A stretch of 64,000 bases of DNA from Lingula anatina (lineage: Eukaryota > Animalia > Brachiopoda): NCBI GenBank assembly GCA_051362555.1, contig CM120649.1:3162001-3226000 (forward strand), read 5' to 3'. Below, one piece after another: positions 2,162 to 42,043 of this stretch. A program made the position numbers and the translations under genes. The notes beneath the pieces were generated by a model. It did no database searches, was not told where the DNA came from, and saw only the letters and a list, made by a program, of their open reading frames with translations. The number at the start of each line of letters is the position of its first letter. The stretch's first letter is position 1.

Positions 2162-2547
2162 TTCGATATTACTACTTCAGTACAGTTATGACCCACCATC
2201 AACCATACGTGTCATATCCTACACGCTTCACAATTCATATACAGATCATAAAACCAACCAGTACAATGAGAGGTCCAGGGAAGGGGGGGGGGGGTTGGAC
2301 TCTGGGGGGCATTTGTCCGCCCTCTTCTCCGAACCTTCTCCCTCCCAGCAAAAGGTATTGGAAATGAATAGCGACGAAAGCAAGCATTTCTTTCCATCCA
2401 TGTTTCCATCCTTTGTTGTTACAATTTAATAGTCCTCGTCTACTGTTTTGTATTTGATGAGGAAAAAAATAAAATAAAATAAAATAAAATAAAATAAGAA
2501 AAATAAAAAGATAAATAAATAAAATGAAATATCCTTTAGCTTCCCCT

Positions 2548-2593
<46 letters not shown>

Positions 2594-4199
2594 CAAAATC
2601 ATAACTCAGCCGGTGGTGCATCCATCGTATGTTGCATAGTCTAATTATTAACCATTAAGTGCAACATTAGTTCCTGTAGGCTGTGAATTCTCATGACAGG
2701 AAATAATATCATATTGTTGTAATTATTCGAATACATACCTAACTGGTCACCCGTCTTTGATGCCACCATATTAAATATGAACTGGAAAGGCAGATAAACG
2801 ACAAACCTTCTCAATTAATTACTTATCAAACACGATTCCCGCTGGGAGAATACATTTTAACAATTGTGAAACGCGTCCGGTTGCCTTCGGGTCATGCCAT
2901 TGACGAGCAAAAGTGGCGTTTTGCCTGATGGTCGATGCAGGGTCACGATGACACTAGAAATGGTTTTGTTTGTTAGTTTGTGTTTGCACATGTACATTTT
3001 TCGGATGCTGAGGTACTGGTATAAGTTTTTACACCCAGTTACAATATTTTCTTGTGAGCACTTAGAACAAGTATTGTTCTTTTTACATTTTAAAAGATAA
3101 AATGTTATGATAATAATTTGTAAACTTAGGCATGCAGAAACAGAATCAGTGGAATTTTCTACTTATGCCATCGTCACCCCTTCTCTTTTTCTTTCTGCAT
3201 AGATGGGTTCTTATTATATTGATAGGCTCAATTCTGTAACCAGTTCTGTAGCATAAATGTCATAGCTATAAATTATTTCAAATATATTCTACAACCAACC
3301 TATAGTTGAAAACGTGTATTCACTGCGTCACAATCAGACGCTCAGATATGCTTTTGTCGGACATTTTGGAAATGGGTCACGTGTGTGTGTGTGTGTCACT
3401 AGGTGCTGGTTCCATTTCTAAAAATGCTAGTACATTTATCTGTGTTTGAGCTTTATTTTTTACTATTACATCTTTACTACGCATGCAACATGGTTATTTT
3501 ACACAGTGACACGTACGTGAGTACACAATGCCACTTTAGTTTGCACTTTTTGTCCTAGTATACATTTATTTCTTCATTTCTCGCGCTGTAAGTCTCTAAT
3601 GTAAAAAAAGAAACATTAAGTGGCGCCCTTTTCTAAATCACCCGTTACCTTATTGAATAGAACACAGACAATGTGTTTTTAATGTTTTACAATGAGTTGA
3701 CCACCAGTGATACTGTTGACACTGTGTCCAACGTTTCCTTCACTTCTGTGCGCCTTCTGATCTAGAGCGATCCGAACAGTACCTTGACACTCAGGGTACA
3801 GGACACTTTAACACAACCTGTATGGATATATATGTCTATTTAGTAGCAGGTACCCCAACTCTTTCTTTCTTCGGTTGTGTGCGCCTTCTGAACTACAGCA
3901 CCCTGATACTCGGAGTTAGCTATCTATATTTAGTAGTACATTGTAGGTATCCTTGTAACCTCTCTAGCTTAACAGTCATTAACCCCTCAATGCCTGATAT
4001 TGCTCATTTCTAATCATCTAAAAATATATTACATTCAATCAATGAAAGAATAAATGTATGATGTGCATAAAAAGTAAACGCACACGCACACAAACACACA
4101 CGAAAAAGCTATGAAATCAGGGTGCTATCAAGGCCCTAATTTTTCCATTACAAGTAGCGTAGTACATTATCAAATAACATCAGTGAAGGTTCAATGAAT

Positions 4200-4424
4200 G
4201 CAGTCAGGCCGGTTTTAGTCGCCGTATCCCCGCCTGGGGGCGCCTCAGACCGGTCTTGAATACGGAATTAACAGCCCGAAGTGGCTGAAGCCCTCCCTCT
4301 CGCCGCCTCTGTCTCTCTCAGTTTAACCGCACCTGGTTTTGTTAACAAATTTATTTTTTGTTGATTTGTAGAATCCGGCACCAGTCAGTCGTTCATACCG
4401 AGGACCCACTGTTCCACAAGAAGG
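4200..4424 (+). promoter_or_regulatory. Putative CpG-rich promoter and non-coding first exon ending at a GTAAGT donor (4425)
   Basis: GC/CpG-rich patch at 4200-4310, Inr-like TCAGTT at 4318, ATG-free exon, consensus donor AGG|GTAAGT. The downstream partner exon is inferred. Confidence 0.45.
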
Positions 4425-6770
4425 GTAAGTACTGAAATTATTTTCTGTTCACAATTTCTGCAATATTGTCGCTTATTAAGTTTAGATTTCATAAAAGGTG
4501 TTGAGCTGTCAGACGTAAGATGAAGCGGATTGCACGTTTTATTATACCCACTCACGACAATATGTTCGCGGTAGGCTTTCTACAACCAACATAACCCTGT
4601 TTATAGAGTTTATGAAAAGGGAAGATATACATGTGCAATATTGAGTAACACGGTGCACTGAAGTCTCTAAGCGTGTTTGTGAATCATGTGTCGTGTTACT
4701 CGTTTAAAGCGAGGGGATCCCATTAAACTGACCCTGAAATTGCCACCAGTCGTCATTATAGAAATTCACAAATGCTAATAGGATATTTATCTAAGAGTCG
4801 AAATGATTCGGAATTGGTGTGTTTAGATGTTACTTTCAGTGAACATATGGACAGCAGTTCTTAATTCATTTTGTCCCAGGCAAGCATCTATCGGTCATGG
4901 CACATACGGCTATTTCTGCACCTCATCTTCCAATTATTTTAAAGGCCATTCACATATATCTATGACCGGTCATCAAAACGTTAATGTCCAGTCCTTCTTA
5001 ATGTCTCTACCCTTTAGAGGGTTTAATGTCCTCTTCACCCGTCTGTGGCTTCGCACCTGTGCATTATTTTAAACTTTAATTAGTTTCCTATGAACCTTTT
5101 CAATTAGATGCCTCTATTTTCAAAATTATTCGAAAACAAAGATGTAAATTTAATAATATATAGTAGAAATATAGAAGTGGCGAGATTTTTTGCAGTGAAT
5201 TTCGTATACTAACCCCCCCCCCCAAAAAAAAAAAAAAAAAAGCTGCCCATACTGAGACTGTCTGCCCCCGGGGAGACTTTTCAACAAAACCAGCTAGTTC
5301 AGTTTTTCTGTCTTACGGGTGTCATAAACTGTTGTTATCGTTTGTCTTTTTAAATGTAAGAATACAAAAATCTCCATTATCGATGTAAACTCCAGTTTAA
5401 CGCCCCCGAGGTGAGGGCTGTTATGTCGGCACCTTTGATGTGTAAGGTGATTCATACATGGTGCAAGTTTTTACTTGTAAAAAAGATAACAGCGAACCTT
5501 GTTTCCATGAACTTTTACTCCTTCTGGGAAACGTGGGGATTTATGATTATTTTGTATCTATATACATTGCATTAAAAGCAGGTAAATCTATAGTAAATAT
5601 AAGGTAATCTCCCAGAACCATTCCCTATTGAAGATTTCGGTTACTAAAGTCCGTCTCCGAAGCATCTTTATAGTGCACCACTACACGTACGTGTGTATGT
5701 AGATGTACTTATTATTACATGCAATTGGGACATGTGGCTGTGCACGAAAAATCTTGTTGCTTTATTAGGCCCTATACATAGTATTTGAGAAACAAAATCA
5801 TATCGCGTGCAGTGACCTGACTTTTAAAGACAAGTCTTCATACATGTAGATTCCACTTTTGACTCCGAGTCTTGTGGAGGAGGAGTGAAGAGATGGATAG
5901 CGTGACAGGAGTGCAACTTGGGATGAATATATAATTATACAACCATGCTATATTACTACAGTTCCAAAATTGTTTTCAAGCTCTAGTTAACACGATCGGC
6001 TATCAGACCATAAATAACATAGCTTATCTAGGGTTGTGTGATATTGTACCCTGTTCGCTAACAATTAGGGACGTAGGCACAGAAATGAGATGTCTATTTA
6101 TGTTATTATCGACACTTTGCTGAGAGAGAGAGAGAGAGGGAGAGAGAGAGAGAGAGAGAATGAGAGAGAGAGAGCGCAAACAGATGACAACATAGAATCA
6201 AAAATTCCCCAAATATAACTCTTTTCCTTACTCCACAATCTAGTGCAAATCAGGCCAAAGTAAGATTGAATACAATGTTACAGCACATTCCTTCCAGTCT
6301 CGCGCCTAGCCTTAGCAACAGCCCGTCACCTAGTAACCTTACAGGTGTAACGCGCGCATGCCAGAACTCATTGCATTTTCACCTCGGTCGACCTTACACG
6401 CGCTATAGAGTGGCACTGACCTTACTGGGTCTGACTGGAATTTCCTTGGTTAATTTCATTTCGTCACGGTACATGTGCATATGCAATTTATATATAAAAC
6501 GCCTGGAAAAAGTGAACGAGAGAAAATTTGTCTGTTATTAAATTATTTGTACAAGGTATATATAATTGACTTTAATGGAATATTCGAATATCTTGGGCAT
6601 TGAACTTTATATTAATAAAATCCTAGAAATTTTTAAAAAAGTAGAAAGGCATATTTTTGGTCAAATAAGCATATGCGAGCTCTGTAAGTTAACAGTATAG
6701 TTGTATGGCTCAGATACAGCCAATGGTGTGACTTAGATATTTCATGTTTTACAATTAAAACATTTTTAAG

Positions 6771-6771
<1 letters not shown>

Positions 6772-6851
<80 letters not shown>
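6772..6851. repeat. (TA)n microsatellite
   Basis: About 80 bp of perfect TA repeat. Confidence 0.95.
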
Positions 6852-6854
<3 letters not shown>

Positions 6855-7684
6855 ATCAAAGCAAACTTGCAGGCGGATGGCGGCGACTGAGCATGGACAA
6901 TTTTTCGAAAACGCGTTTGTGAGCAGTTTTGGAAGAATGGAAAACGATTTTAAAAGCGGTCGTTGTTAATGAAGAGAAATATCTCGATAACGATGTCATG
7001 GTGCGTTTTTTATGCAATACTGCACACCTTTAGTTCTACATTCTTTAAGGTGATAAAATATCAATACTTTTAAGCAACAAAAGCCTACTGAAATACTTCA
7101 AATTAAAAACTTGTTAATATTTTGCTTGGAAGTCGTTGTACTGTGTAATGAAATTTTGTCTTTTAAGTGCAGTGATGGGACGTTAAGGAGGAGCCTAATA
7201 TAGAAACGTCAGGTATAATATATTTGACTTAACACATAACATTTTGCAAAATAATGAGTCGTAATTTACCAAATATGATTCAGGCAGTATACGCACACAG
7301 TTAATAAAATACTTGGTAAATCGCCAGAATGCTTGCACCATATAATCAAAAGCAGCGATGTTTAATTCCCACTAAAGACCACCGGCATCTAATCCAGTTT
7401 CAACTTAATACATGAGATCTCTTTCACAAGATCATCTCGAGCGATAATTCAGTGTCACAAGTACCAGTATGGAACGTTCAAGTGGTATCGGTGCACCACT
7501 TACTCTCCATTGTCCTCAATCTTAAGAAGGATAATACTTAGGAGCTATGTCAAGGGGTAATGCAATACACCGACTGCTAGTCCCATCATTGTGATCCTTA
7601 TCGTGAAAATTACTCTTCAGCTCTTTCTTTCATTTGGATCCTACGAGCGCACAAATTTGGCATCGGGGTCAGATGCAGTGTAAC

Positions 7685-7738
7685 CACGTGCTCATTTGAT
7701 CTGATTGATCACGTGTTTATGATATCAGATGTCACGTG
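7685..7738. promoter_or_regulatory. Cluster of three CACGTG E-boxes (candidate enhancer)
   Basis: CACGTG at 7685, 7710 and 7733, spaced 25 and 23 bp. Confidence 0.35.
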
Positions 7739-10700
7739 ATCAGTGTGACAAACTGCGCTGATCTTCTAATACATCAATAATTTAAGTTTTGTGAGATGAA
7801 CTAGTAGTTCTATCTACTCTATAACTGTACTTTGATGCCGTTGAATGGTGTAAAAGATACAAGCATGTATTGTAAAGTAAAATGAAAATTCCAATCAGTA
7901 CTGAATCGAAGAGTGAGGTTACAGGTGCAAATACAGCGGCACACTCGGATGGTAACAATACTCTCACCAAACGCATTTCCAAAACACAATAAACATAAGA
8001 ACCTGCATGACAGTATGTTTGTGATGGAGTTGAAATAACAGCGGTGGCGGGGATATCTTTCACTAGCAAATCATCCTAAAAATTTCCATGATTTTCCATA
8101 TACAAATGGCATACATGGCGTACGGCATGCTTGGTAGTAAAATCACTGGCCATGGATGATTTTTGCATGGACGATAGTAAGGAAGGCTCACTGAATATTT
8201 TCGTTTGAATTCATGCTCCATTAATCGAAAGTTAAACAGATTTGACTTGCATTTTAAAACTTTTTATGGAAAAGTTTATTTTAAAATGCATTTCAGGCGT
8301 TTTGGAGGGTGGGGTGGGGTGGGGGGGGGGAGGCAATTTTAATTATTACCATAGATGTCGTTTTTCGTAGATACCCCCTGCGTGTACAGTGTACGTGGAG
8401 CTAAGCAAGTATTTAAGACATAACAGCCACGGTCGAGGGAAGGGGGCGGGGGGGGGGGGGAGAGAGACTGCTGTAGGTCTTGGTGTTAACAGTAGACCAT
8501 TGAGGAGGTCATTAGTTCGACGACAAGAGGTTGCTTAAAAGAGGAATTGCACTCCGCGTTTCTGCATTACATAGAAATACAGCGAAAAACAAATACATGC
8601 CGTTTTAAAATACTTAAAAGATTGCCGTGCAAAGTGTTTAGAGGACCCTTGGTTTGTTTGAATACTCTTCTGCAAAGGTTACTCGACGGTTCGACATTCA
8701 TAGGCGTCCCAGCGAACACTGACAAACAAACAGCTTCGATCTTTTGCCTCCTTTTCTTCTACATTTCTACCCTTTCTTTCTTGAAGATAATTGATTATTT
8801 GGCAGCGAGGTCACACTTAGATCCATTGCGTGCTCTTTCCCAGGCGAAATAATATAGAAGGTGACAAATTCACACGATTTCACCCCTACACCCAACACGC
8901 CCAATAGTTCCCAAACACAATACCACGCCTTTATAAACCTACTAAAAGCTTTTACAACTCCAAAACCACGAGCAGGTAAATGACACAGACTTTGTTTAGA
9001 ATATATCAAATAGTCTTTTGACCCGTTAAAGGGAAGGGGGGCAACGGTAAACGGTGGATTGGTGCTCATTGCGTAAGAGGATATGGAAAAAAGGGAAATC
9101 AACCGAGGCGGGGACGGGATAACGAGTGGACTGTGATTTGGTGACAGAGTGGAAGACATCGTGGTGTCAGCTGGCGTATATGGGGACAAATTAGCTGTCG
9201 CCTGTTCCCAATTATTTCAGGGGTTTGGTAATACGGTCTTCGCGTGAAAATCGATACTTTAAGAGGGGATATTAAAGGTGAGTTGTACGTGTGATTGATG
9301 AAAGTCTCGGTTAAGAATTTTCGATATGAGGGGAGGTATAACGAATATATACTTATTTACATATAATTTTTTTTTCTTTGGGGGGGGGGGGTGACTCAAT
9401 GTTTCTATATTGTATAATTGCGGTTAACACGTTTTATTTTTCTGAAATATAAGTTAGAAGAGAACGATCTTTGTCCATGCATGTCTCAATTCATAGTTCA
9501 GAAGCCGAAATTAAGCACAGCATAAGCAAAGAAAGATCTCATGGGTACAGTAATAAAATCTTTCGTGTATACTTTGCAACAGAGACAACAGAGCAAGCAA
9601 AATTAAGTCGCTACAACAGTAGGGAAATACACTCCTAGATATTTCTAAAACTAAGCCTTGAATAGATTTTAATATCAAGAACACGAGCGATTCACATTGG
9701 AAATTCCAATTGGAAATGAAAACACCCCAGAAATCAAAACTCATTCCATTTCTGTTTGACCAGCCGTACTGTCTTAGCTCTATCCACACTAAATACTTAA
9801 GTCGTAATTTTTTGTCGATGTCTTCACATTTTTTTTACAAATATTAGGGCGGCTCGATCGAATAAAATGGATCAACTCCAGAAAGCCGTGCCTTTCACTT
9901 TGCTTTCTTAGCTGCAATGTTATCGTGACCTGACGTATTGACTGAATAAACCAAGTCTGACGAAGTCTTTACGCCACGCATGTTATAGAAATAAACCCGA
10001 AAACAATTGTACATATTACAGCGCAGTCTTCTTGTAGAAGGGAATGTTTTACGCTACAGTGAACTCGGATCGATAGTTTCGAAAATGAAGCTTGATCAAC
10101 ATGAATTGCCGGCGGAAATTTGGGTATGGTTTAAAGAATTAATTTTCAGCTCCACATTGTAGAGCGTATTAGGATAAGCTATTTGCTAGACGCACCTAAA
10201 CAGTACAACAATGCCAGTTGATAGAGTTTTACAAAAATTACAAAAAAGACGGAGGCAGACTCGTTCATTGTGGAGATGTTTAATTTACTTATAAAAGGCA
10301 TTCGGGTCATTATAAAAATATGCGTCTAAGGTGAGGGTTGGATTATCGGTTGAGGGGTGTGTACGTGTGTGTGTGTGTGTGTGTGTGCGTGTGTGCGTGT
10401 GTTTGTGGGAGGGAGGGGGAGGGGGCTGTGTGTGTGTGAGGGAGAGGGTGTGGCTGGGTGTAGAGGAGCAGGGGTAGATTACAGGAAATGTGTGACTCAC
10501 AACAGGGGTATGGAGTCTCGTTGTGGGGGGGGGGGGCGAGGAGGGGGGGGGGGAGGATTTTTTTAAGTGCGACAGTGGAAACAAATTAGCCATCCCGTGA
10601 CATGTAAAAAATTAAGGATTGTCACATACGCCCTTGTAAAATTACATTTTTTTCTTAACGCAACAAGCAGTTTTGTCCAGGGTGAAAATAAATGGTTTGT

Positions 10701-11088
10701 CAGATGACCACTGAATGTCCACCGGACCAACCCCCAAAATAATCGCGTGACAGAAAAGTAGTGTCCGAAATGGGGTCAACTCTCCACTGTAATTGGTAAA
10801 CAGGAGTGGTGACCGGTCTTTTTTAACGATACGTATCATATATCACCCATTTAATGGCTCGATGAACATAAAAATTGAAGGAACATCAATAATGGCGGAC
10901 TGGATGAACAGGGATAAGATATCAGCAACCTCCGCTCTCAAACTGTCAAATGGACGCTCACTCACTCACGCGATAATCATGCTCACACGTGTTTGAAACA
11001 AAACAAAAACGCACCCACTTAAGGGCAGCAGAGATAGACTGAAACACACGCAAGGTTGCTTGTTAAACAGCTACATAGACGAGTGAAA

Positions 11089-11127
<39 letters not shown>

Positions 11128-12569
11128 ATGGTAAGACAAATAAAGCAGTAAGGATAAAAAAAATGAATAAATAATTCGATAAATTTGACCATACACCTGA
11201 TTTTTTGTATTGACACAACAAACTTGCATACTATCATGTACTTAATTTGACCTTACAGGGAAAAGTTAAAAAAGAAACGATTGTATCCTATGCGTGACTT
11301 ACAATGCATGATGTACACTGTAGAGCGCATTGATGTTCCGAAGATTGATGTCTTCAGTTCGGGTCACTCCCGCGGTACAAGATGACACGTCTCCAGTAAT
11401 GGAATTGACGTGTTTCACTACTTTCCTCGTGCCCCAGGCCCCCACCGCCTTGGTAATAATAAATTACTGTATTGATTCGCTTGAGAAAATGTAACAGATG
11501 CATCTTAGCTAGTGTATGAAGTTATGCTGGATTTGTATATTGAGCATACTACAAATTCTAGTCTTAGTAGATCGCTGAGAAATGAGTACTATGGGCTCAT
11601 TCCCACAGACATCATCGGCGTACACAGATCGATCCAACTCCGCGGGGGCTGTCGCTGAATGCAATCAGTATAACAGATTTACAGTCTCCTCCTTGCGTTT
11701 AGTGGAATACAGAAAGCTGGTGATTTTAAGAGTACTTTGAAAATAAGAGGAGGCGTGTCATTCAGTTAAGCTGATTGCACTCGGCGAGAGTCTCCGCAGA
11801 GTTGGATCGAACTACGTAGATCGATGGTGGCTATGGGAATGGGGTCTAATATGCTGGTTGAGAACAGCCAATATTCTGCACGTAGATTCCTCACAAAGAT
11901 ACGACCTAATTTCCGTGTGAACTATCAAGGGTAGTATGCAAACTGAAGAGCAGAGGTCGGCCCGTGTGGGGTATGCAAGCAGTTGGCATACAGCTTTTTT
12001 TATGCATTCTGAGGCCACTCACAGCTGCCGTGTTTAGTTTTTTTATCATCCTCTCCGCTTCGTTTACACGTGCACGACCTCGGTCACTGTGTGGCGTTGT
12101 TTCCCGGAGAGTAGCGAATAGTGAACTCGAGATGACATCATTCTGTTAACGTATGGAGGTTAGTGGACGCTCAACACGTTTTTGTCACGGTTTGTAGGCA
12201 TCTTGTGCTCGGGGTTGCACAGTGTAAGCTCGGGGACGTCCAGCTGTGTCGCGAAGACCGAGACGTAACTCCAACCCACAGTGAATAGAACAAATCTTTG
12301 GGCAGTGTCGTCAACGCTGATTGCGACACCAACAGGGGCGACGCCGTACATATTGTTAATGCCCGGAACTCGATTCAATTGAAATGCGACGTCAAGGATA
12401 TAAACACAAAGAAAACTGCATTGCGTGATCAAACTTATGTCTCGTTGGATAAGTTTCTTAGCCAGAGTCTCTTAAAGTGACAGCGACTTCTAGGTAAGAG
12501 GGAGCGGTTTCACAATCAGGTAGTTATATACTGAGGTATCTCCATTAAGGGGTTAAAAGAGACCGGACG

Positions 12570-12850
12570 TGACTTCCGGGCTGTTGGGTAAAGCACTCAA
12601 TGCCCCTTACTGTGCTCTTGATACAAAATCACAGACTTTGTAATTGAAATAGCTGAGGCACCAGAGTGTCTGCAACAATACACGTACCCTGTTGCTGTTA
12701 GGCTTGGCAGTTCTGAGAAAACATTGCCGAGGATAAAGCAATCGGTATAAACTTACTTCCGGGTTTCCGTGTTGCAAGACTTCCAGGTCGTCTACTTGCG
12801 CAACTCGGGTAGCTTATAAAGCTAGACGAGACAGTCAGCAGTTCAGGATA
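12570..12850 (+). promoter_or_regulatory. Putative promoter of the DPGVIIP-repeat gene
   Basis: ACTTCCGG (ETS-type) at 12572 and 12755, palindromic TTGCGCAA (C/EBP-type) at 12796-12803, TATAAA at 12815-12820, Inr-like CAGTTCAG about 25-30 nt downstream. Confidence 0.55.
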
Positions 12851-24453: not shown

Positions 24454-27400
24454 TGATGATGAAAATGATGATGATGATTATGGTGGTGATAAAAAGAAAG
24501 CAAGTTTTGAGAAACAAATTATTATCACAATTACTGTACTAGCATCATTTCTATTATAATATTCTACCCGGTTTGTATTCTAGTTTTACCATGAAGTAGA
24601 GGAGTGCGATTACTGGATGAACCTTTGCCTGGCCACGCTTTATAAGAAGTTTGCAGACAGAGATATGGAGGGAGACAGGCAAAGTGCAATGCGCATGCTC
24701 AAGGAATTAGGGGTAAGTCTTCCGGTCAAATTGGCCAATCCTTTTTTTTTCTACGATAAAGTCTATTTAAATTGAATTTTTGATATCGTGTTTCTTTAAG
24801 CACACATTGCGCGATGCGCATGCTCAAGGAGCACGGAAAAAATTCCTTTGAATTGGTCAATACTTTTGTGAAATTTCTTGGATGCATTGTAAAGTGCAGG
24901 TCAGTGAAAGAACAATAAACAATGAAAAAAATACTGCTAAATATTCTATTAAATCATTTCCTCTTTTACAGGAGACGCTCCAAGCCTATTTACAGTGGCA
25001 GGCCCGTGTGGATAATTTATACGACAAAAGTAAAGACATTGTCCCTGTTAAAATGAGGACGCAAGCTTTAAAAGATCCTAAACCAGTTAGAGCGCTCTGT
25101 GCATACAAGGCAAATGGCGTAAGTACCAATTATGAGAAAAAAAGTTGAACCTGCTCACACAACGCGAAGAACCAAGCAAAAGATAAAAATAAGAAGCGGG
25201 GATGAACCACAAATCAAAAATTATTTCAAATAGCATGCAATTAGTTTTTCGAGTTTCACGGCTTTTTATGGTCGCTCCATTACAATATTTGTTTACCAAA
25301 AAGTGTATCGCTGATGATTTGGAAAAGATAAATAATACCCAAAAGTTCCATCTACACATTGAAAGTGCTACATGTACAATACATCATTGTTCATTTCAGG
25401 TCCAGATACAGGACGGAGAAGATCTGACACTTTTAGACAACACAGATCCAACAAAGTGGAAGGTAAAATAGCGATTGAAAACAAAATCCAAAACATAATT
25501 GTAACTCTTTTTCAGCTTTCCTTAGACAAAGTTAAACAGCTTACTATGTGCATTGGGCCTGTAAAAAACACCAAAGAAATTCTGCATTGCACCCCATATC
25601 TCCAAGGTAAACCATATTATATTATATTATATTATATTATATTATATTATATTATATTATATTATATTATATTATATTATATTTTGACAGGTAAAAACTA
25701 AGAAGGGTCCAGAGCTGTTTATACCTGCAGTGTGTGTTCTGATACCACCAATGGACGTAGACGCAGTAGAGGCAGCAACAAGGTAACTGTGTGATAAAAT
25801 ACACATGGTAAGCCAGAGACAATTAAAACCGTCGAACTCAGCGTCTTCATTTCCTTAGACGTCTTTATTTCTTTCACCTGCTATGATGAACCATCAATAC
25901 AAAGGACTAGAAACAGTGTACCGGTTGATATAACTGTTGATTAATTGTTATATATTGTACAAAAAAGGTTTATTGAAGATGAAAATACTTTGATTTCAGA
26001 TTACGGTTACAGTTGCTGGCCATTTGGACACAGTGTGTGAAGAGACTGGGAAAACAGATGATCACTCTCATGCAACTAGTTTTTAGAGATTGGAGTACTG
26101 AGGAGGTGAGTGACCTTGACCCAGCACCTGACCTTGACCTTATGACCCATAATGTGCTGCAATATATGCTCTAAACCTGTCGTCAAGATTAAGGCTGGTT
26201 GTTTAGATCTTACTGGTATGTATGTCGAAGTGAAACGATGCTGTTTTCCCATTGGATGCCTTGATCTCACAAAATCTCGAGAGACGAGGGTCTTTTAATG
26301 ACAACATGGCATTTTGAATTTTTCATTACCATTTTTTTCATTTAGTCTAATACTTTTAAAGCATGAAGTGCGTTGTAAACTTTTGAAAAGTGCAAATATG
26401 AAGGAATATTGCTTGGAAATGATTATTTGTGTGAGTTTGGTCTTGTTAGAAGGGGAGAGGGATTTTGGAAATGGATAAATGGGTGGGATGTTATGTGAAA
26501 GGCATTGGCTGTCATTGTTTTGGTTGGAAGAACATTGCGCTGCAACGGCACTTTTTTGGCAGCATGTTTGTGTCGAAGTAAGATGCTATATGAGTTTATA
26601 TGAGTACACACCCTTATTGTGCTTCATAATTGAAGACATTTTGTTAAGCGTGAATGAATACTGGTACTAAGTACATGCTGACATATTTTTTAATCCTCTT
26701 TTCGGTGCTTTATTATTTATATGAAAATGTAGCTACTTTGTTGACATAACAGGATACATTGCATTGCAACTAGAATGTTGGATTATATTTATTGGCCGAT
26801 TATCCGTTTGATCAATATTAGCATCGTACAGCATAAATAAGCACCTGTATATTTTGAAGGCAGCATGGTCGTGTCAAAGCTCCTCTGTTCTGTATAGTGT
26901 ATAGGGTATACTTCAGTATAATGTAACCTTAATAGAAATTATATTAAGAGGAAAAGAAGAGAGAAAAGGGAAATGTATACATTTGTCTGTGCACCTTTTG
27001 TTGCTTCAGTTACCCCATTTAATGTATATATCGTTTGGCCTGGCCTGTTTATTTCAGCCTTTTAGTACAGAAGAGCGGCAACAGGTAAAGTATGTTGTGA
27101 CGGATCCCCGCCCCCTTCCAACCAATCCCGTGTTGTGTTACTGCTGTACCCCATTTTGTGTTCAGTGATGTCGTTTGAAATGCATGTTATGTCTATGTTT
27201 TCTCATATACAACAAAATGGACTGTATTATTGTGTGATTGCGCATATATCTTTGTATCAATCTTTGCACCGAACTGCGTCTACTTTATTCTTGAAAGATT
27301 CATAATACTAACCCGTCAAATTTACATAACTCACCATTTCTGCTCAAGGATTTACAAATTTGTGCAAGATCTCCCTAGATTTAAAATGAAATAAAATATA

Positions 27401-30400
27401 ATATCTTTTCCACGTTCTTTACAATCTTCTGAGATATACGCTGAGGTTTTGAGTCTGTGTTAAACGAATGTACAAAAAAAAAAAAAATAAATAAATAAAT
27501 AAAAAAATAAAATAAATAAATAAATAAAAAACACGGCGAGATCAAATTACTTTGAAAATCAGAATACAGCACTACTGGTCGTTTTTATTAATCTCTTTCT
27601 CATATTGTTTGTCTGTGAATGATTCAAAACCTTCTTTATATTATAACCACAAATCACATTAATCGTTTCGTATCGAGCACGTTATGTATGTTAATGTCCC
27701 CACTTTGAGATAAATGAACCGTTTCCATCCCGCTATATGTTGACGTCATAGCAACCAGAACGTCACTAATACCTCGTGTCGTGACAACATATTTTACGAC
27801 ATTCTGCGTGAACAAATGGACCACTGCTGTCCTGGTGACTTTCTTGTATCTATGACTCTCCTTTTAAAATGGCACATAACATGTATTCTTCACACTTTGC
27901 ACGTCGGATGTCTTATAATAATCGCATGCACCGTATGACTGTGATTTCATTTACGGCGCATTACGTCATATAAATGAAGCGCATATTCAGTATTTTGTTG
28001 CAGTGTTTACTTGATCTTTGCTAACACTTTTAACTTTTCAGAGACCATCTTGAGCATGGCTCTTTCTTTCAATCGGATTGAAATTTTATCTCAGGTTTCG
28101 GCAGTTGCCTGTCTTTGTAGTGGCACTGTTGAAAATCTGTTTCTAGTTATTAATTGAAACGTGACAGAATGCTTTCATGGCTGAAACATCTTAGTATAGA
28201 AGCATATAACGTAGTGCAGCAGAGAAATACTGCGAAGAACGTAGACAAAAAACACATCTTTAAGCATTAATGATAATATAAGAGCTTATATATAGTAGTG
28301 CTTGCAGGCTTTCAGTTACACCACATAGAAAATCATTAAAAAAATAAAAGTACCTCTCGATCTAGTACATGAACTCTCACGACAGTATATTTACAATGGT
28401 TTTCTTGAGAGCATATCTTCTTTTTGCTTCTTCAACAGCCTTACCAAATGACTCTTTTATTTGAAAAACTGATGCCAGGTTAAAGGATATTCTTTTACAC
28501 ATGTACTCGATATGCATCTATCTTAAGTTCATTCAATGTCATAATTTATTTGTAGATCGCTCTACTTAGGTCGTTACCTAATGGCAAGAAAGACATGCTT
28601 CTGAAAATAATGGCACTTATAGAAGATACTTTGGGGAAGCACTGGAAAGATTACCCACAATTCGAGGAGCTTCTGGAACGATTTGGAAGGCTGAGGATTA
28701 TTCTACGCCAGGAACCGGTGGTGGACATTGAAGGTCTCTCTCTCTCTCTCTCTTCCTCCACCTCTCTCTTTCTTTCTCTGTCAAAAAGGATTCAGCTGGA
28801 TCCTATGACAATAGTCCGCTTTTTCAAGGCATATCATTTCTACATTATACCCGCATACCAGTAGGGTTCTAGAGATATGCACTTATGAACACCGTTTTGC
28901 ATAATTAATGTAATGTGCTTTTATGGATTTTTAAATGAGTTTTGATGTGTTTATTTTATGTTATATTTAGACGAAGCAGTGGTTACCACTATAGTTGTAC
29001 AGATCGGGACTTTGGAAGACCTAATGAGAAAATACGAGGTATGAATATTCATAAACTAGTTAGTTAGTTGCAAAGTGAAAAGAAATGATGGTAGTCCGCT
29101 AAGAATTGTAGTCCGTCCCCTCTTGGTTTGTACAGGTAGCGTTCGTCCCATACTCCGATACTTCCATTCCTAGGACTGCTTTTCCTGTCACAAGAGCTAG
29201 TTTGTGCATAAAAATAAAGTAAATAATAATAATAACCGATAAATAGGTGCATATTTAATATTGATATTTTTGATTTTTTAACATTCCAACAACCTGACTA
29301 TAGGTTAGGAAAAATTAGAATAACATTGCCTGCATTGGAATCGAGGAATCTGTTGATCTGTCACGTGAACAACACATTTTTCGTCATATTTGTCCAGACA
29401 AGTAATGCATAATTTTTCTGTTATCATATCAGGACTTCTGGATCTACTGGCAGACGTACAAAGTGATACTGGAGACTCTTCGCCAGCCTCATTTCATGTT
29501 GATCGTAGACAAGTGGGAACAGCTTAGATTTATCTCTACGGCACATTTCGTCAAGTGAGTATATACAGAGTAGTGGGGGGGGGGGGGGGGGGGGGGCACC
29601 AAAGGCAGAAGGTTATTATAACGTTACCATAACGTTTGTTTAACCAAAAAACGTTAAGAAAACGTTATGGTTAAGTTATAAAACGTTCAGTGTTTGCTGG
29701 GTGAGGCGAGGTGTGTAGATATTGATTCTAAATCATTATCATTGAACCGCGAATTTTTGAAAATTTTGATTTTTAATTTTCAAAGTTTTCCTTTCGCAAT
29801 AAGTGATGCTAGTTTAGGATTATTTTTCGCCGTGAGCCAGTACTAGAAAAGCATAAACCATGTGAATTCTGTCAACATTTTTGTAGAGAAGTACAGGTGC
29901 AGTTTTATAACATTTTCCTGTTCCTGTTATATCCTATTACCGTTTCCTTAACTAGATTCTGGCAGACTGAAATTACCGTTGACGACATCGAGAAGAGCGA
30001 GGAAATATCCGTGATCCACGAGACCCCCAAGCAGTCCCTCAAACCCGTGGACGTCCTGGACGCCGATCTCAGCCTTAGCACCGAAGAGAGAAAAGCCGAG
30101 ACTCAACAGTATGTAGAATCGGAGCAGGAGGAGCAGCGGAAGTTCATCATCAAGGGGGTCACGGACCCAGTTTCCGGTAACGTGATCAGTATGCAGCAGG
30201 CGATTGGCATGGGCGTCATCAACCAGGAGACCGGATGTTACGTCAATAAAGTTACAGGCGATTCCATGCCCATCCCTCAAGCCATGAACGAAGGGTTGAT
30301 TCAGGTGGAGTTTGCTACAGCGAAGAGGAGTAAAGAGAAGAAGAAATCCATAGGAGTTATCACCATAAAAACCGAGAGACAAAACAAACCTTACTCCATC

Positions 30401-30937
30401 GTCGGTGCGGTCAATCCTAAAACGGGAGCCGAAATTAGCGTTGCTGTCGCCTTGGAACAGGGGTTACTCAACGAGTCACGGGGAGTGTACGTCCACCCGG
30501 TGACCAAGCAAGAAATGACCTTATCAGACGCTATAGACGCTGGGCTACTCTTGGTGAAGTTTGACGAAAACGTCGAAGCTGATGTGACCACAAAAACCTA
30601 TGCTATCCACGCTGTCGTGGACCAGCGGCGGAAGGCACGTGTCTCATTCCAAGAGGCAGTTGACCATGGTCTCCTGGACAGGGACACGGGGTCCTACGTT
30701 AACAATGTCACTGGAGAGAAGATCTACGTGGCTGATGCCATTATGAGGGGGTTCGTTAAAGCCCACGAGGTGGACGACCCCAGTAAACTGGACATAGACG
30801 CCGAGAATAAGATCGTCGTGGAAAAAATGGAAAATATGAAGAAGAAGTTGTTAAAGCCAATGAAGGCTCTCAACGCGTTCAGATCTGCGGTTAAGGCTAG
30901 TAAGGTCCCCAATGGAAGTGTAAGCGCCAAAAAGTAA
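21631..30937 (+). CDS. Compact plakin-family cytolinker (~783 aa): spectrin-repeat/SH3 plakin domain plus C-terminal plectin repeats
   Basis: GT-AG exons with matching phases: 21631-21684, 22389-22517, 23400-23471, 23686-23799, 24041-24136, 24584-24712, 24972-25118, 25400-25462, 25691-25782, 26000-26105, 28556-28733, 28971-29038, 29433-29554, 29956-30937. Plakin motifs CLQWI..DMGSNM, NWAWIQ..CMDTHLSNAAAYHQF, IVPVKMR..PVRALCAYK, LLDN..KWKV, IPAVCVLIPP resemble plectin/dystonin/MACF. Confidence 0.9.
25615..25683. repeat. (ATATT)n microsatellite abutting a splice acceptor
   Basis: About 13 pentamer copies ending a few bases before the AG at 25689-25690. Confidence 0.9.
27058..27084 (+). CDS. 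Candidate 27-nt frame-preserving microexon (PFSTEERQQ) of the plakin gene
   Basis: tttatttcag|CCTTTTAGTACAGAAGAGCGGCAACAG|gtaaag, phase 0-0 inside a phase-0 intron. TGCATG at 27181 and TACTAAC at 27306 lie downstream. Confidence 0.5.
29956..30937 (+). CDS. Terminal plakin exon with about six plectin-type repeats
   Basis: Units such as DPVSGNVISMQQAIGMGVI, NKVTGDSMPIPQAMNEGLI, NPKTGAEISVAVALEQGLL, HPVTKQEMTLSDAIDAGLL, NNVTGEKIYVADAIMRGFV. Stop TAA at 30935-30937, then an AT-rich 3' UTR with several AATAAA. Confidence 0.92.
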
Positions 30938-33022: not shown

Positions 33023-34011
33023 AAGCATGCCCTGCTGCGTGTCTCTCTTTATATGCCATTGGGTCACTGAAATTTCCTACATTCGTGTGCGGCTGAAATA
33101 GGTATATAACTCAGCGTAGTTGTGTGGTCTGGTCTTTAGATATCATGCATTTAGCACAGAAGATTGTCTACAGATTCAAGTATCTGTCCACTCCCCCAGT
33201 TATTTCAATCATAAAATGTCCCTTTTTCTTCAAATTATTTCACACTAGCGAATCCAGAATCTTTGGTATCAAAAAACTCTCTCATAAATAATGCTATAAC
33301 ATATTTAAACACAGTGTGTAACTCTATACTGTGTTTTGTGATTTCACTTGAATAACGTTCCAGTGCGTGGTTTTCTCCTTTATTTCATTAATATATCAAA
33401 AATTATATCAGTACTTTAAGATGTATAAGATTAAAGTCAATGCACTTTGTGAAAAGGAGTATTGAAGACTATTACCTTCACATTTCACGCCCCCAACCAA
33501 TGCAGTGTATTATCAGTCATACAGTGCCGCCGGAATCTCCCCTTACTTACCCTCCGGGTCGCTGCGGGTTGTACGGACGGCCTGGCTCGGTTACTATGGA
33601 AATAACATTGTCATCCATACGCTGTTTGGTTTCTGTTAACAATAGTTTCATACCCTGCCAGTCGGGCAATTATCGTGACAAACTTTCTGCTAACAAAAGA
33701 GCCTAACCCTAGCTCGCTGAGATAAAGATCGAAGGTGAGCGTGGTCGCAATTAAGTGTTCGTCCAAGCGTTAATTGACCTTTAATGCGCGGTGGCTTCAC
33801 TCTACTTTGATCACTCTACTCTGATACGGAGATTTTAAGTATAAGAACTTGCCAACAAGTCGCTTTACCAAAAAGATTCGGTGATGACAGCAATTTTCGT
33901 GTACATTGTAGCTATGAATTGATTGAATTTACATAGAGTTTAATAAATGAATTTATGAATTTATTAAAGATCAAATAAAACACTACTTGTACATGTTATA
34001 TTTATTAGGCT

Positions 34012-34372
34012 TCAAACTGTCTTTACTATATACATATTATTAACAAGATTGAAATTTATTTTTGTCCTTATATTTCTATTAGTTTTGTTCATAGACGAAA
34101 TGCATTTTTTCTAAAAAGACTTGTCAGTTGTTTCAGTGATAAACATTTTGTTAGCCATATCTTTAATATAGTTCAGTCTATATTTGCATATAGGATCTCT
34201 CCCATCTACACCCGTAACATTTCTGTCCTTTCGTATTCGTTCATCAATCGTAAACAACCTTCCCATCAACTGAACGCAAAAGTTGCTGGGGAACTGGCCC
34301 GTTGTCGAATTTCGAATATTTCTTTATTTGACAAGGCGACGGGTGGCCGGCCGAAAGACTGATTCCTTGATT
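34012..34372 (-). pseudogene. BEN-domain gene terminal exon carried inside the Tc1 element (one frameshift, one nonsense codon)
   Basis: Acceptor tcctacag at 34373. Reconstructed ..EIFEIRQRASS(P)SNFCVQLMGRLFTIDERIRKDRNVTGVDGRDPICKYRLNYIKDMANKMF..SF*KKCISSMNKTNR fits the BEN pattern. TAG at 34113-34111 falls at the usual Trp. AATAAA at 34006-34001 follows the stop. Confidence 0.72.
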
Positions 34373-34914
34373 CTGTAGGACACAAAGTAGGAACTGTTTC
34401 TCTATCATTGTTTGATATGTAATTCAAAACGATAGGAATAGTTCATCTTTACGATCTAAAGCCCAAACTTAACCAAAAGCATTCTTCATACTTAAACGCA
34501 TCAAAAGAAATTAATTAAAAAACTGGATTACATTCTCTCGGGCTAACTTCACTGGTTGGCACGTGTCATCTCACATTAATAAACAATCAGTTCAGGTTAG
34601 CTTTATTCATGCTGGGTAAACACAGTGATTAAGCCCTGACTATTACATAATCACTACTGTGTGACACGCGTCGTCTAAAATTAATGTAAACATTGCGATG
34701 ACGCCCTTCAATCCAAACTAATCAATTGCACATAATTCTAAATCAACTGACACGTGTCAACAGGATTGTTTGTGTATCTGGACTTCCTAAATGGCCAATA
34801 AGTATTTTGTTTAATATGACATGTTTATGTCACTGATTTCCATGCCATCGTGTCACCTGCCAAGTGAACGGTATAAATCGACACTCAAATTTTCCAAATC
34901 ATCACAATTCCAAG

Positions 34915-35301
34915 ATGCCTCTTAGCGATTACGTGCGTCTGCGTATCATCGCCCTACGAGAACAAGGGGTGCGAATTAAAAACATAACCGCACAAATGGA
35001 AAATGAAGGGCATAAAGTGTCGCGACAAGCCATTTTCTATGCGTTAAAGAAATGCAACGAAGGGCTTGGTATTGCAGATAAGCCACGAAGTGGACGTCCC
35101 TCAAAGGTTGACCTGCGCCACATGAACGTTATAGACGAGGAGATGACCATATTAACGCAGAAAAGTGTATTATACAGTAATAAATATATTAATCACCTAA
35201 AGAAGGTGATTCCAGCGGTACTTGAGAGAGAAGGTCGTGCATCAGGCTACTTAACTAGCAACACGTGTAATAAAGGTAATGAGACATTGATATTTATTTG
35301 A
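34915..35301 (+). pseudogene. Tc1-like transposase remnant: N-terminal HTH joined to the C-terminal tail, DDE domain deleted
   Basis: MPLSDYVRLRIIALREQG..KVSRQAI..DKPRSGRPSK (paired-like HTH with GRP motif) runs almost directly into YINHLKKVIPAVLEREGRASGY. TATAAA at 34872. Confidence 0.85.
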
Positions 35302-36116
35302 TGTATTAGCTATTTAAAATGTTCCATTTTAACTACGCTTTTGTTGATCGTGACTTATTATCATCAAATAAAATTGTTATACGTGTTTTAAAACTAAGCC
35401 TGATTTGTTCTTCAGAGTTTTGTTCTAATATTTGACTTGCCTTTACTCGAGTCTTCTGTTGCAGTTGATACATAACCCGGTATTGTTTGCTCGTGTCGAT
35501 AGCAATCTCTTTGCATCAGCTATAATAGAAACCTTAAGTGAGGCAATTAAAAAGGGGCAGACCGTGTTCGTTGAACCGACTAATTTGGGTGTCCGAAAAG
35601 GATTGCTTGGGGATTCCCCTACCCTGTAATTATCATACGGCCTCTATTGTTCGACCATATGGGGCAGGGTTGGGAAACCATACGGCCATTTGGTAAGGGG
35701 ACATTCCGGCGGCACTGTATGTCGTTTTTTTGCAGTGCATATAATGAGATATTTCAATGTGAATAGGCCTATGTCGTATATAAAACACCTCTAAAACAAT
35801 AGGATAATGTCACCTTTTAAAAATAGCAGACTGTATGAGTAGATTTTTAAGACATGAAATAAAATAATAATTAATAGAAATGTACTGACTTTTAAAACAA
35901 GTATGAAAAAATTGGGAGCCTCAACAGTAAATTTTCAATATGCATCCGTACGTCATTCGGAAACAGGATCTGTTATTCTTTCCAGTCACGTTTTAAACCA
36001 GATGGAATCTGGCTTTCAGTCAATTTATCCTTTCTGGACAGCGCATGCTTAGTTTGTGATTTTAATTTCGACACTAAATTCGTCGTTTGTTCAAGGTAAT
36101 GGCGTCTGCCACGGGA

Positions 36117-37570
36117 TCATAGAATAACACACGCTTTATTTTTGCCCTTTGCAAATGGGTTTTCTTTTTGGTCGGCAAACCCTGTGATCAGAATGTCGCG
36201 TGTTTGGTGCTGGAGACAATGCGCCTTCAATTCCTCAATACATCTAGAAACTGGCAGCCTCCCTAGACTCGCCTCCAGGCGGAGCTGCTGTACAATGGCC
36301 TGCTGCTGCTCCAGCTTTTCTTGCGAGCGCGACATCTGGTAGTGGGGATCCTGGAGACATACAAGGGATAAATCAAACGATGGCGGTTATATAAAATTCA
36401 TAAGCACAATGCGTTTTCTTTGTAGGGATTTCTGGAAGGTTCTATTTTCATACATAATGAAAGAAATTGTTCCGTTTTAGCGCACTGGCAGTATCAGGTA
36501 ACTGTGCAGAACCGCTGAATATTCAATTCAGCATACATAACATAAAACGTGATTTCCATAGGCCTTTCAGATTATATTTATAATCTGCTGTATGTCTGTA
36601 AAGACAAAGGATTTTACACATAGGGCTTAGAAAACCAGAACGTTTCAGCGAAGAAATCAATAGTAGACGCTTGTAGCGGGACATAAACATGGCTCATGAC
36701 GATAATTTCTATAATCAATTCATAAACTGCGCTTTGACAGATCAGACAGTGTATGAAAGCGTCTGTTCATTAAAAAGGTCTACACTGATTTATAGTCATA
36801 TAAAGACAACCAAGTTACATGAATAGTCACCATGTTTCAGATATGATAGTGACTATTAATGCACTTGGGATGTTATTAGGGAGTGGACCTTAACTTTTCG
36901 CAACTCCTCCCTAATGACGTTTTTCTACCCCCCCCCCCACCACTCCGAATGAAAATTTTTAGTCAATATTGCTGCATATTAAATTAAATAAAGGCCTCAG
37001 AACATTTTACTGATACGGAAATGTTTTTGAAGGGGGTATGGGGTATGGGGGGTGGGGGTCGAGTGGGGTTTGTGGTGTAGTACAGGGGGTTTGTGGACCC
37101 TTCCCCCCTCCATTCGACAAGCATCACTACATTTAAATCATGTCCCAATTTTTTCTTGTATGTAGAGAATCATCTTCCAGAAGGCTCCACTTTTTCTTTT
37201 CATCTGGAAGAAGCCCATGTCGCGGAGGGTGTGGGTTGGGGTGGGGTGCAGGGGCGGATCCAGGATTATTGGAAGAGGTGGGTCCAGTATTTTTCTTAAG
37301 AATACCGGGCCTCGGATGCATTGCCAACCCTTGGTGTGTGGTTCGGTGTTTTGGAGAACAAACTGTGCCATTTGGTGCAGTTTAGAACTACATGATTCAG
37401 CTCTTCAAAATTCTAATATCAAAAGGGGAATACTGGTGTGATTATTCTTCCGGACACCGAATGGGGGGTGGGGGGTCAGGACCCCCCTGACAGCCCCTTA
37501 AATCCGGCCCTGGGGTGGGGGAGAGGGGGGGAGCACTCACCGCTGCCAAGTGTTGCCCTCGTCGGCTCAT
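36117..37570 (-). CDS. Heterotrimeric G-protein gamma subunit (GGL domain, CAAX = CVIL); exons 37570-37541 and 36350-36117, 87 aa, or 72 aa from the internal ATG at 36335
   Basis: VQQLRLEA..RLPVSRCIEELKAHC..DILITG..ENPF..CVIL. Exon 37640-37541 has a strong acceptor (atcatttcag) and a GTGAGT donor and adds MSRRGQHLAA-DPHYQ in frame. Confidence 0.9.
37249..37512. mobile_element. MITE with CAGGG-CGGAT-type termini and 5-bp GGGTG TSD, in a G-gamma intron
   Basis: gggtg|CAGGGGCGGATCCAG...TTAAATCCGGCCCTG|gggtg. Confidence 0.7.
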
Positions 37571-40394: not shown

Positions 40395-40661
40395 CAGACT
40401 TATTACGCAGGCAAGCTGCTGTCATTAATCATTCTTTTTCAGAGTAGTGCAGATGAAATGTTACCCGCATCCTATAAAATTTTGAATCCTTAACGCAGGC
40501 CATCATCAGGGAATGATACATTGAAGTCGCACTCATGTCAGGAATAAATAAAGGCTGAATTCAGGCTTTGCCTAATGAAAGGTACGAGAGAGAGAGAGAG
40601 AGAAAGAGAGAGAGTTGATGTCAATGGCAATCAGATTTGTTTGACTTTATAGGAGTATCTA

Positions 40662-42043
40662 CTTAGGATTAAAAGTGATCTTTTATGTGGAGTGGATAAA
40701 CATTCAGTGGTTCTTTTAGTCCTGTTGGACCTATCGGCAGCTTTTGACACTGTTAATCATGGACTACTTTTATCTTTTCTTGAAGATTTTATTGGTATTA
40801 AGGACTCTGCTCTTAGTCTTTTACGTTCTTATTTTACAGGCCGGTCACAGCAGGTTATGATAAAAGGCATATTATCAAATGTTTCAGAAATAGCTTTTGG
40901 TGTGCCACAAGGCAGTGTTCTAGGACCTCTTGTTTTTTGCATGTATACCTTACCAATTGGGGCCATACTAAGACATCATAACATTGGCTATCATATTTAT
41001 GCTGATGACACACAGATTTTTACTTGTTGCAATCTAGAAAATCCAAAAGAATCTATTGATATATTGTCTAAATGTATTGACGATCTTCGCAGGTGGCTGA
41101 TTAGTAATAAGTTGAAAATTAACGATGGAATGTCTGAACTTTTGGTAATAAGTCAGCCACATAATCGTATGATAGCACAACAAATTCAGCTCAAAATTGG
41201 ATCAAGCATTATTAAGCCAACAACCTATGCAAAAAATCTTGGTGTATTTTAGATGGATCGCTTTGTATGAACAAACATATTGCCAGTGTATGCAGGTCAG
41301 CGGTTTTTAACATTAGGAACATAAGTGCAATTCGCAATCAGTTGTCTGACTCTGCTGCAGCCACAGTCATAAATTGTTTAGTTACATCTCGATTAGATTA
41401 CTGCAACTCCATTTTATACGGTTGTCCAAAGAAACAAATTGCCAGACTGCAGCGCATTCAAAATATTTCGGCCAGATTATTAACTCGGACATCCACAAGC
41501 ATACACATCTCCCCAGTTTTAAAAAGTTTACACTGGCTACCTCTACAAGCCAGAATTTTATTCAAATTTTTAGTTTTTACTCACGATGCTTTTTATGGAT
41601 TGGCACCAATCTACATCAATGAATTAGTTAGTCACTATGTTCCAATGCGAAATCTGCGGTCTGTAGACCAATTGCTACTCAACCCAGTAAAAATGCGATT
41701 AAAAACCTACGGTGATATATCTTTTAAAGCTGCAGGTTCAAAGGAATGGAATCTATTTCCGCTGGAAATCCGAGCAATTCAGTCTACCAAACATTTTAAA
41801 AAAGAACTCAAAACATACCTTTTTAGGAAATATTTTGATTAACTCTTAATTGGTTTTATAAATCTTGTATTAATTGCATTTAATTGTATGGAATAATGGC
41901 TGTTTTACCTAGATTTTATTTTTGATATTTTATGTAGTATTATTTATGATATTTTATGTAAAGTCTACTGAACATTTTAAATGGATTTTAGACTTAAAAT
42001 AAATTTATTATTATTATTATTATTAAAATAAATTTATTATTAT
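40662..42043 (+). mobile_element. 5'-truncated L2/CR1-group LINE; RT split by a single 1-bp deletion (ORFs 40692-41252 and 41267-41842)
   Basis: DLSAAFDTV, VPQGSVLGP, YADDTQ, SRLDYCNS, LHWLP motifs. One extra T near 41250 restores GVFLDGSLCMNKHI. 3' AAGTCTA..TAGACTT stem and (TTA)n tail. TATCTA at both ends (40656-40661, 42044-42049). Confidence 0.92.

Follow-up and report, generated by a model that had tools for sequence, protein, structure and literature searches.

A multi-copy Tc1-like element of Lingula anatina that probably derives from a two-gene DD34E lineage with a Tudor-like and BEN-domain partner

The DNA analysed here (the window) is a stretch of 64,000 nucleotides from contig CM120649.1 of the Lingula anatina assembly GCA_051362555.1. 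It contains one copy of a Tc1-like element at positions 33522-35717, with the features listed in Table 1. The terminal inverted repeats (TIRs) are 25 bp each with one mismatch and have TA at either side, as an earlier note based on the letters alone had described, and an empty-site allele corresponds to the locus minus the element and one TA. The TA duplication and the short TIRs, together with the paired-like HTH and the GRP motif of the transposase remnant, are those of a Tc1-like element. The element is separated by 400 bp from an ORF for a G-protein gamma subunit (36117-36386, minus strand; Pfam G-gamma, 59 bits), for which seven reads of the RNA run X19 have a different 5' part beyond 36351, representing another allele, a paralog or an exon. 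Elsewhere in the window there are two LINE-type reverse transcriptase remnants (104-2176, minus strand, and 40653-41249, plus strand), a plectin-repeat exon (29813-30934, plus strand) and a weak SH3-like exon (24852-25145, plus strand), the last two possibly parts of one plakin gene.

Table 1. Features of the element and its borders (window coordinates)
Feature	Position	Strand	Basis
Left TA target-site duplication	33520..33521		sequence and empty-site allele
Left terminal inverted repeat, 25 bp	33522..33546	+	inverted-repeat search; 8 RNA reads arrive from another flank
AATAAA 3' of the BEN exon, candidate polyA signal	34001..34006	-	sequence; weak, region AT-rich
Remnant of the last, BEN-encoding exon of the partner gene; bears three lesions	34012..34372	-	other copies; alignments to L028 and profile A1
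Candidate splice acceptor, pyrimidine tract and CAG	34373..34391	-	AG at 34374-34373, 12/16 pyrimidines
Suspected second internal deletion, just past another candidate acceptor	34452..34456	-	one X2 contig; inference
Region of the divergent promoter; TGACACG occurs five times (34562-34855), once within a 12-bp palindrome	34456..34914		shuffles
Transposase N-terminal 78 codons (first HTH and GRP motif)	34915..35148	+	profile positions 1-79
Transposase C-terminal tail, in-frame join across the DDE-core deletion	35149..35253	+	profile positions 312-335
AATAAA overlapping the GT donor at 35276	35269..35281	+	RNA reads exit here into unlike sequences
Right terminal inverted repeat, 25 bp	35693..35717	-	contigs and 48 + 35 RNA reads continue into other flanks
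Right TA target-site duplication	35718..35719		sequence

Other copies of the element were examined in sequencing runs labelled as the same organism (DNA runs X1, X2, X6 and X9; RNA runs X13, X16 and X19). In X9 the contig depths summed to 2,400-12,800 within the element and to 95-134 in its flanks, and in X6 to 925-4,660 and 40-68, such a sum of depths not being a copy number. At both ends contigs and RNA reads passed into other flanks. The empty-site allele in X9 jumps from 33519 to 35718, i.e. over 2198 nt, exactly the element and one TA. The Tc1-like element at 33522-35717 is young, multi-copy and polymorphic for its insertions. The empty allele in X1 (33520-35721) has two other letters at the target site, which may be point mutations of that allele or the scar of an excision. 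Since a run with just 2 Mb of contigs assembled the element as two contigs (33666-34552 and 34523-35719, differing from the window by 5 and 16 letters), the abundant form is that of 2.2 kb, BEN segment included, and it carries this segment in four DNA runs. Two 151-nt contigs from X11, a run with a second organism label, closely match 33760-33898 and 34489-34636, which points to a related species or contamination. The exact TIR pattern was found in 0 metagenome contigs.

The transposase gene of the window copy retains positions 1-79 and 312-335 of the 335-column profile built from its relatives. By this alignment the DDE core is deleted and the copy is a non-autonomous derivative. Over the N-terminus it matches the transposase of L028, a relative described below, at 41 % (E 7e-14), and a word-indexed protein search with this N-terminus returned nothing. 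Contigs with other letters at either side of 35149 were present, and single contigs in X6 and X1 have other letters at 35149 and read on as transposase (15 and 30 letters). On the strength of these letters longer copies likely exist in the same genome; the runs contained no full-length parent from the source organism, and the 15-30 loose letters are the pointers to it. The family stop codon of the transposase is at 35251-35253, with A at 35252 in 176 of 189 RNA reads, and this majority stop gives a 112-codon frame consisting of the DNA-binding start and the tail, with the catalytic core absent. Ten nucleotides at 35167-35178 are present or absent among copies (755/1928 depth in X9); this segment, which brings the tail into frame with the N-terminus, looks like a TA-flanked excision footprint.

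The abundant deleted form, encoding the in-frame 112-aa transposase (34915-35253), was strongly transcribed in one stranded polyA run, X13, from which about 6 % was read and 1422 reads were placed on the element region. On the transposase side the sense-strand RNA begins at about 34900 and has a depth of about 455, and X16 and X19 yielded 2 and 42 reads. It is possible that the catalytically dead 112-aa product damps transposition, as deleted P elements do. Loose-ended RNA reads accumulate behind 35275 (83 reads, agreement 0.43) and behind 35279 (18 reads, agreement 0.74). The RNA reads exit through the internal GT donor (35275-35279) or the right TIR (35719-35720) into varied sequences, and element copies may drive chimeric host transcripts.

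Facing the transposase gene on the opposite strand lies an exon which the earlier note had assigned to a BEN-domain gene. The head-to-head layout, put there at about 540 bp, was confirmed, the transposase ATG at 34915 (plus strand) being 543 bp from the candidate acceptor AG at 34374-34373 (minus strand). The BEN reading had required two repairs. Replacement of TAG (34113-34111 on the minus strand) by TGG is what the other copies carry, with C on the plus strand at 34112 in nearly all of their depth (129/143 in X1, 24/24 in X2, 7058/7058 in X9, 6175/6175 in X6 and 2/2 RNA reads). The added base is likewise held by X1, X2, X9, X6 and 6 of 7 RNA reads, but its place was wrong: the gap is behind 34285, 3 nt beside the C-run to which it had been ascribed. 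A third lesion, beyond the two noted earlier, is the absence of 7 nt behind 34062 in comparison with other copies, because of which the family stop codon of the partner gene falls, by our reading, near 34040 and not at 34012; the AATAAA proposed with the stop does stand at 34006-34001. The exon was also said to have its own splice acceptor, and a candidate AG preceded by 12/16 pyrimidines is present; splicing at 34373 was not seen, no spliced read being among those listed for the RNA runs at this position. The RNA of the BEN exon in X13 forms a low-depth island on both strands (sense 2-4, antisense 1.5-6).

The window copy has no in-frame start codon for the BEN exon, and a scan of the window with the partner profiles found no Tudor-like exon. 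In X2 one contig (depth 5.8 versus 24) agrees with the window over 34452-34552, and its letters below 34452 are different ones. A second deletion is suspected here, one that would have removed the start codon together with the Tudor-like and linker parts of the partner gene and would explain both the missing start codon and the missing N-terminal exon.

The unbroken frames of the window exon gave no match in the Pfam BEN scan, the best PDB match being BEND3 at E 0.16, and three protein searches with these frames alone, two of them word-indexed, found no homolog. The third, a HMMER search of 1.84 billion proteins, returned 3 matches, each a sum of weak repeats, the Atlas search gave no result for the transposase or the BEN gene, and among viral contigs and phages there were chance matches only. 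A fold predicted from the exon sequence by itself was of poor quality (pLDDT 60, pTM 0.24). The BEN-type identity is based on homology to intact relatives: the exon aligns to the BEN part of L028 on both sides of the frameshift (the best match in the 64 kb, sum E 1.7e-5), and HHalign against profile A1, the joint profile of the partner proteins, gave a probability of 81 and E 1.2e-5.

Relatives were collected by a metagenome scan with a degenerate pattern of the transposase C-terminal tail. It yielded 112 matching loci, 80 of them with flanks, that comprise 44 transposase families at 85 % identity, and their contigs are, as judged from introns and flanking genes, host-animal contigs. The spacing between the second D and the E is 34 residues (DD34E) in 47 of the 52 scorable relatives. 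A DD37E/TRT identity, guessed from the transposase tail, was rejected since 37-residue spacing occurs in 0 of these 52, and the DD37E groups TRT, L18, L31 and Mosquito, for which it is required, do not fit. An assignment to TLEWI was ruled out by DD34E and by the perfect TIRs. The only PDB match of the L038 transposase was Sleeping Beauty (E 1.6e-17).

The best match of the window transposase among the relatives, and the sole significant match of the window BEN frame, was L028. Here an intact two-gene relative, of the sort the earlier note had asked for, was at hand: two head-to-head gene models of 338 and 403 aa, each of three exons with GT-AG introns, are stop-free and keep both the transposase and the spliced BEN gene open. 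The L028 transposase passes the Pfam cut-offs for HTH_Tnp_Tc3_2, PAX and DDE_3, and the BEN domain of the L028 partner reaches 32.4 bits, the cut-off being 23.2.

Iterated profiles detected BEN in 41 and the N-terminal module of the partner in 23 of the 80 loci, 47 combined, which correspond to 26 of the 44 families and to 16 assembly prefixes. The proposed two-gene Tc1 lineage was supported, a homologous opposite-strand partner being found beside the transposase in 26/44 related families, and the single ORF typical of Tc1 is not what these families have. Of 18 families whose downstream sequence extends to 1.5 kb or more, 14 have the partner, and most of the 18 families lacking a partner match have short flanks. 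In the L026/L045 family no partner was found in 4.1 kb downstream and a TIR-like end lies just upstream; judging from this family the partner may be dispensable. The BEN gene is on the strand opposite to the transposase in 41/41 loci (40 downstream, 1 upstream), the N-terminal module is upstream of the transposase in 5 loci, and the 106 kb situated beyond 4.6 kb from the motif contained no BEN match. The commonest layout among relatives is tail-to-tail, not head-to-head.

Both genes are enclosed by TA-flanked TIRs in L030, L032, L061, L073 and L090, which belong to one family, and in L054, L052 and L083. As L032 and L061 have a common right flank, the five copies of the L030 family occupy at least four sites. 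The complete two-gene elements are 5-8.5 kb long, and the TIRs of the lineage, like those of the Tc1 family, measure about 25-33 bp and start with CAGT; among the loci, none of the head-to-head relatives was complete with TIRs at both ends. The BEN gene of L054 has a frameshift within a C-run. In L044 (10088-10330) the Tudor-like exon is inverted relative to the BEN exon, and the two-gene elements L073 and L052 are each nested in a second TA-flanked TIR element.

The partner is, as predicted from these sequences, a Tudor-like and BEN-domain protein of about 400 aa. The cut-off of Pfam BEN (PF10523) was passed in L028, L075, L088 and L099; when 19 partner ORFs were compared with this model, 3 scored above the cut-off, 8 below it and 8 had no match, and the last group, the L030 family included, is tied to BEN by the iterated profile only. 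Profile A1 matches 11 PDB sequences, 11/11 of them BEN (best E 1e-9), with BEND3, BEND6, BANP and two Drosophila BEN structures among its structure matches. The N-terminal module had no useful sequence match in Pfam or PDB. It is predicted to form a five-stranded barrel (pLDDT 78.7) whose top three structural matches are the Tudor domains of ARID4B, JMJD2C and RBBP1 (Z 7.5, 6.5 and 6.3), matches that are middling in quality (rmsd 4.1-5.8 A, with 4.5 A for the match at Z 7.5); with Foldseek its E values were above 0.4.

Nine BEN pairs had at least 50 % identity; eight of them had saturated synonymous sites (52-70 % amino acid identity) and the ninth gave dN/dS of 0.16. For the N-terminal module dN/dS was 0.11-0.33 or saturated in between-family pairs, and 0.67-1.9 in within-family pairs (L030/L073/L096), as expected for drifting copies. 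The partner gene is under purifying selection, as these substitution ratios indicate. It also co-diverges with the transposase, the distances of both proteins being correlated (Mantel rho 0.71, p 1e-4, 16 families with hosts shared among kin), and host history may contribute part of this signal. The nearest neighbours are the same for transposase and BEN in 12 of the 16 families, and where one assembly contains elements from more than one clade, each has the BEN typical of its clade (L065/L078 versus L089/L043; L055 versus L030/L044).

The transposase tree contained 39 rows, all of them loci found here, without reference Tc1 transposases; 6 of 45 groups with fewer than 95 columns were excluded, and the tree was midpoint-rooted without an outgroup. 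In the transposase phylogeny that had been suggested as a check, the window clusters with L028, L097, L033, L024, L054 and L087 (UFBoot 89, the window represented by 100 columns), a placement with the head-to-head families.

A near-invariant hairpin is located 23-37 nt past the transposase stop in 12 families with transposases 46-77 % identical; ten of the 12 are in the tree, 10/10 of them in the clade of the window. The stem-loop lies at L028:176-221, L056:2963-3007, L038:415-460, L100:753-798 and L129:236-280 and in related loci, and a conserved purine-rich box follows it. Twenty loci were compared with the Rfam model Histone3 (RF00032), and 5 of them exceeded the cut-off. This arrangement suggests histone-type, replication-coupled mRNA ends in the stem-loop families. 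The stem-loop is absent from the window element and from L067. No description of histone-type ends of transposase mRNAs was found in the titles and abstracts searched.

Short repeated motifs were counted against shuffled sequences. Between the two genes of the window, five copies of any 7-mer were reached in 33 of 2000 shuffles, the enrichment not being significant for k=6 or 8, and a TGACACG-like cluster between the genes was not seen in five head-to-head relatives. L030 has 20 copies of AAGTCG within 380 bp of its ends and L052 has 10 copies of AAACGG restricted to both ends (0/500 shuffles in each case), and two of the four complete relative families have arrays confined to their ends. In the window, L054 and L083 no motif beneath the ends exceeded chance.

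Taken together, the element in the window, multi-copy and shortened by internal deletion, probably belongs to a two-gene Tc1-like DD34E lineage whose Tudor-like and BEN partner likely serves as a DNA-binding helper. The transposase would come in trans from a longer parent in the same genome; what the deleted copies make would mostly be the 112-aa catalytically dead protein. As to how the partner acts, the reading we tentatively prefer is that BEN binds the element's own subterminal motifs, similarly to TnpA, which in En/Spm binds subterminal repeats. The BEN partner would coat the repeated motifs beneath the element ends and the Tudor-like module would read chromatin or DNA, helping to pair the ends or to keep them open. 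A role of the partner mainly in transcription, with BEN bound to the shared promoter or the element body and either repressing the transposase or blocking host silencing, is somewhat less probable and follows close behind. VANC acts in the latter manner, keeping host silencing off VANDAL elements. Such a regulator would agree with the resemblance of the N-terminal module to the KDM4/ARID4 Tudor domains, readers of histone marks, and with the lack of end arrays in 2 of the 4 complete relative families and in the window. BEN proteins are moreover described, in the part of the literature available (PMC5704228), as sequence-specific repressors or chromatin factors. The clustering of five TGACACG sites between the two genes of the window points the same way, but it is significant at one of three word lengths (33/2000) and unseen in the five head-to-head relatives, and most families are tail-to-tail and so have no shared promoter.

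Two further explanations concern the origin of the BEN segment. A fragment of a host gene that a non-autonomous derivative took up a single time and kept as passive cargo could look like the window exon, which has no start codon, bears three lesions and yielded no homolog when its frames alone were used in three protein searches. This explanation is very improbable and has been largely refuted: partners stand beside 26/44 families with conservation at the protein level and saturated synonymous sites, they follow the transposase tree, and the BEN of an element agrees with its clade even where one assembly contains several clades. Only slightly less improbable is that pieces of a BEN-bearing CACTA/CMC element, nested or recombined, have landed repeatedly in Tc1 elements, an origin with which the variable gene orientation between families would agree. 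There is, however, no inner TIR or duplication around the exon, the BEN gene is on the opposite strand in 41/41 loci and it co-diverges with the transposase. A nested insertion, which the earlier note had named as a possible objection, is not supported either, the BEN segment having no ends of its own and being present in other copies across four DNA runs. An ancient exchange of the partner gene between transposon superfamilies may have taken place.

In kind the element is a known one, Tc1-like DD34E; what appears from the sequences to be new is the second conserved gene, Tudor-like and BEN, beside the transposase. The relatives share with the Tc1 family, a DD34E branch of the IS630/Tc1/mariner group, the TA duplication, TIRs, paired-like HTH with GRP motif and DD34E core, but differ from it by a second spliced gene, a complete length of 5-8.5 kb and a transposase often with introns. 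L31 elements have an ORF2, likewise an extra gene, and are listed as DD37E, whereas the relatives found here are DD34E. In PIF/Harbinger and En/Spm, too, the transposase is accompanied by a separate DNA-binding protein, and the subterminal repeats of En/Spm resemble the end arrays of two families found here, but these are other superfamilies and use Myb/SANT or TnpA proteins, not Tudor-like and BEN. The host BEN proteins BEND3, BEND6 and BANP share the BEN profile, which here occurs in mobile elements and co-diverges with the transposase; as the comparison for the partner among host BEN proteins we take the build of BEND5.

In the available parts of two papers (PMC7325037, PMC10379824) Tc1 elements are described as single-ORF, according to the former of about 1.3 kb. 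The former also describes extra genes within the TIRs of Tc1/mariner-type elements, as in our relatives: the ciliate TBE carries a zinc-finger gene and a small ORF and Tec a recombinase gene, and its available text describes no BEN gene in TBE or Tec. Its sequence files may hold members of the clade. The TLEWI elements of bivalves share spliceosomal introns in Tc1-like transposases with the relatives found here, but they are DD36E, mostly without TIRs and of low copy, and the accessible part of their description mentions no second gene (10.1101/656579). The requirement of two proteins for transposition is documented for PIF/Harbinger (PMC2836001, in part). The literature search, which did not reach the main BEN surveys, the L31 ORF2 papers or Repbase, returned no paper pairing BEN with Tc1/mariner.

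Tc1/mariner elements are the standard example of transposons with a single protein, and the Sleeping Beauty-type tools are built on them. The maintenance of the partner under selection across transposases that are 40-78 % identical implies a function which one-gene Tc1 elements lack or borrow from the host, and with the intact gene pair of L028 and the motif arrays of the L030 family this function is directly testable. The clade also supplies a concrete way in which BEN genes could have become so unevenly spread over animals and their viruses. It is conceivable, though on balance doubtful as a whole, that a widespread animal clade of Tc1-like elements constitutes a two-component system with the same Tudor-BEN helper as in CACTA-type elements, in which BEN would act on family-specific end motifs and the Tudor-like module would read chromatin, one subclade also using the histone 3'-end pathway. 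BEN genes have been described in animals, poxviruses and bracoviruses (PMC5704228 and PMC11601247, as far as available). If the above is true, mobile elements would be a reservoir of BEN genes, exchanged between transposon superfamilies and tamed by hosts.
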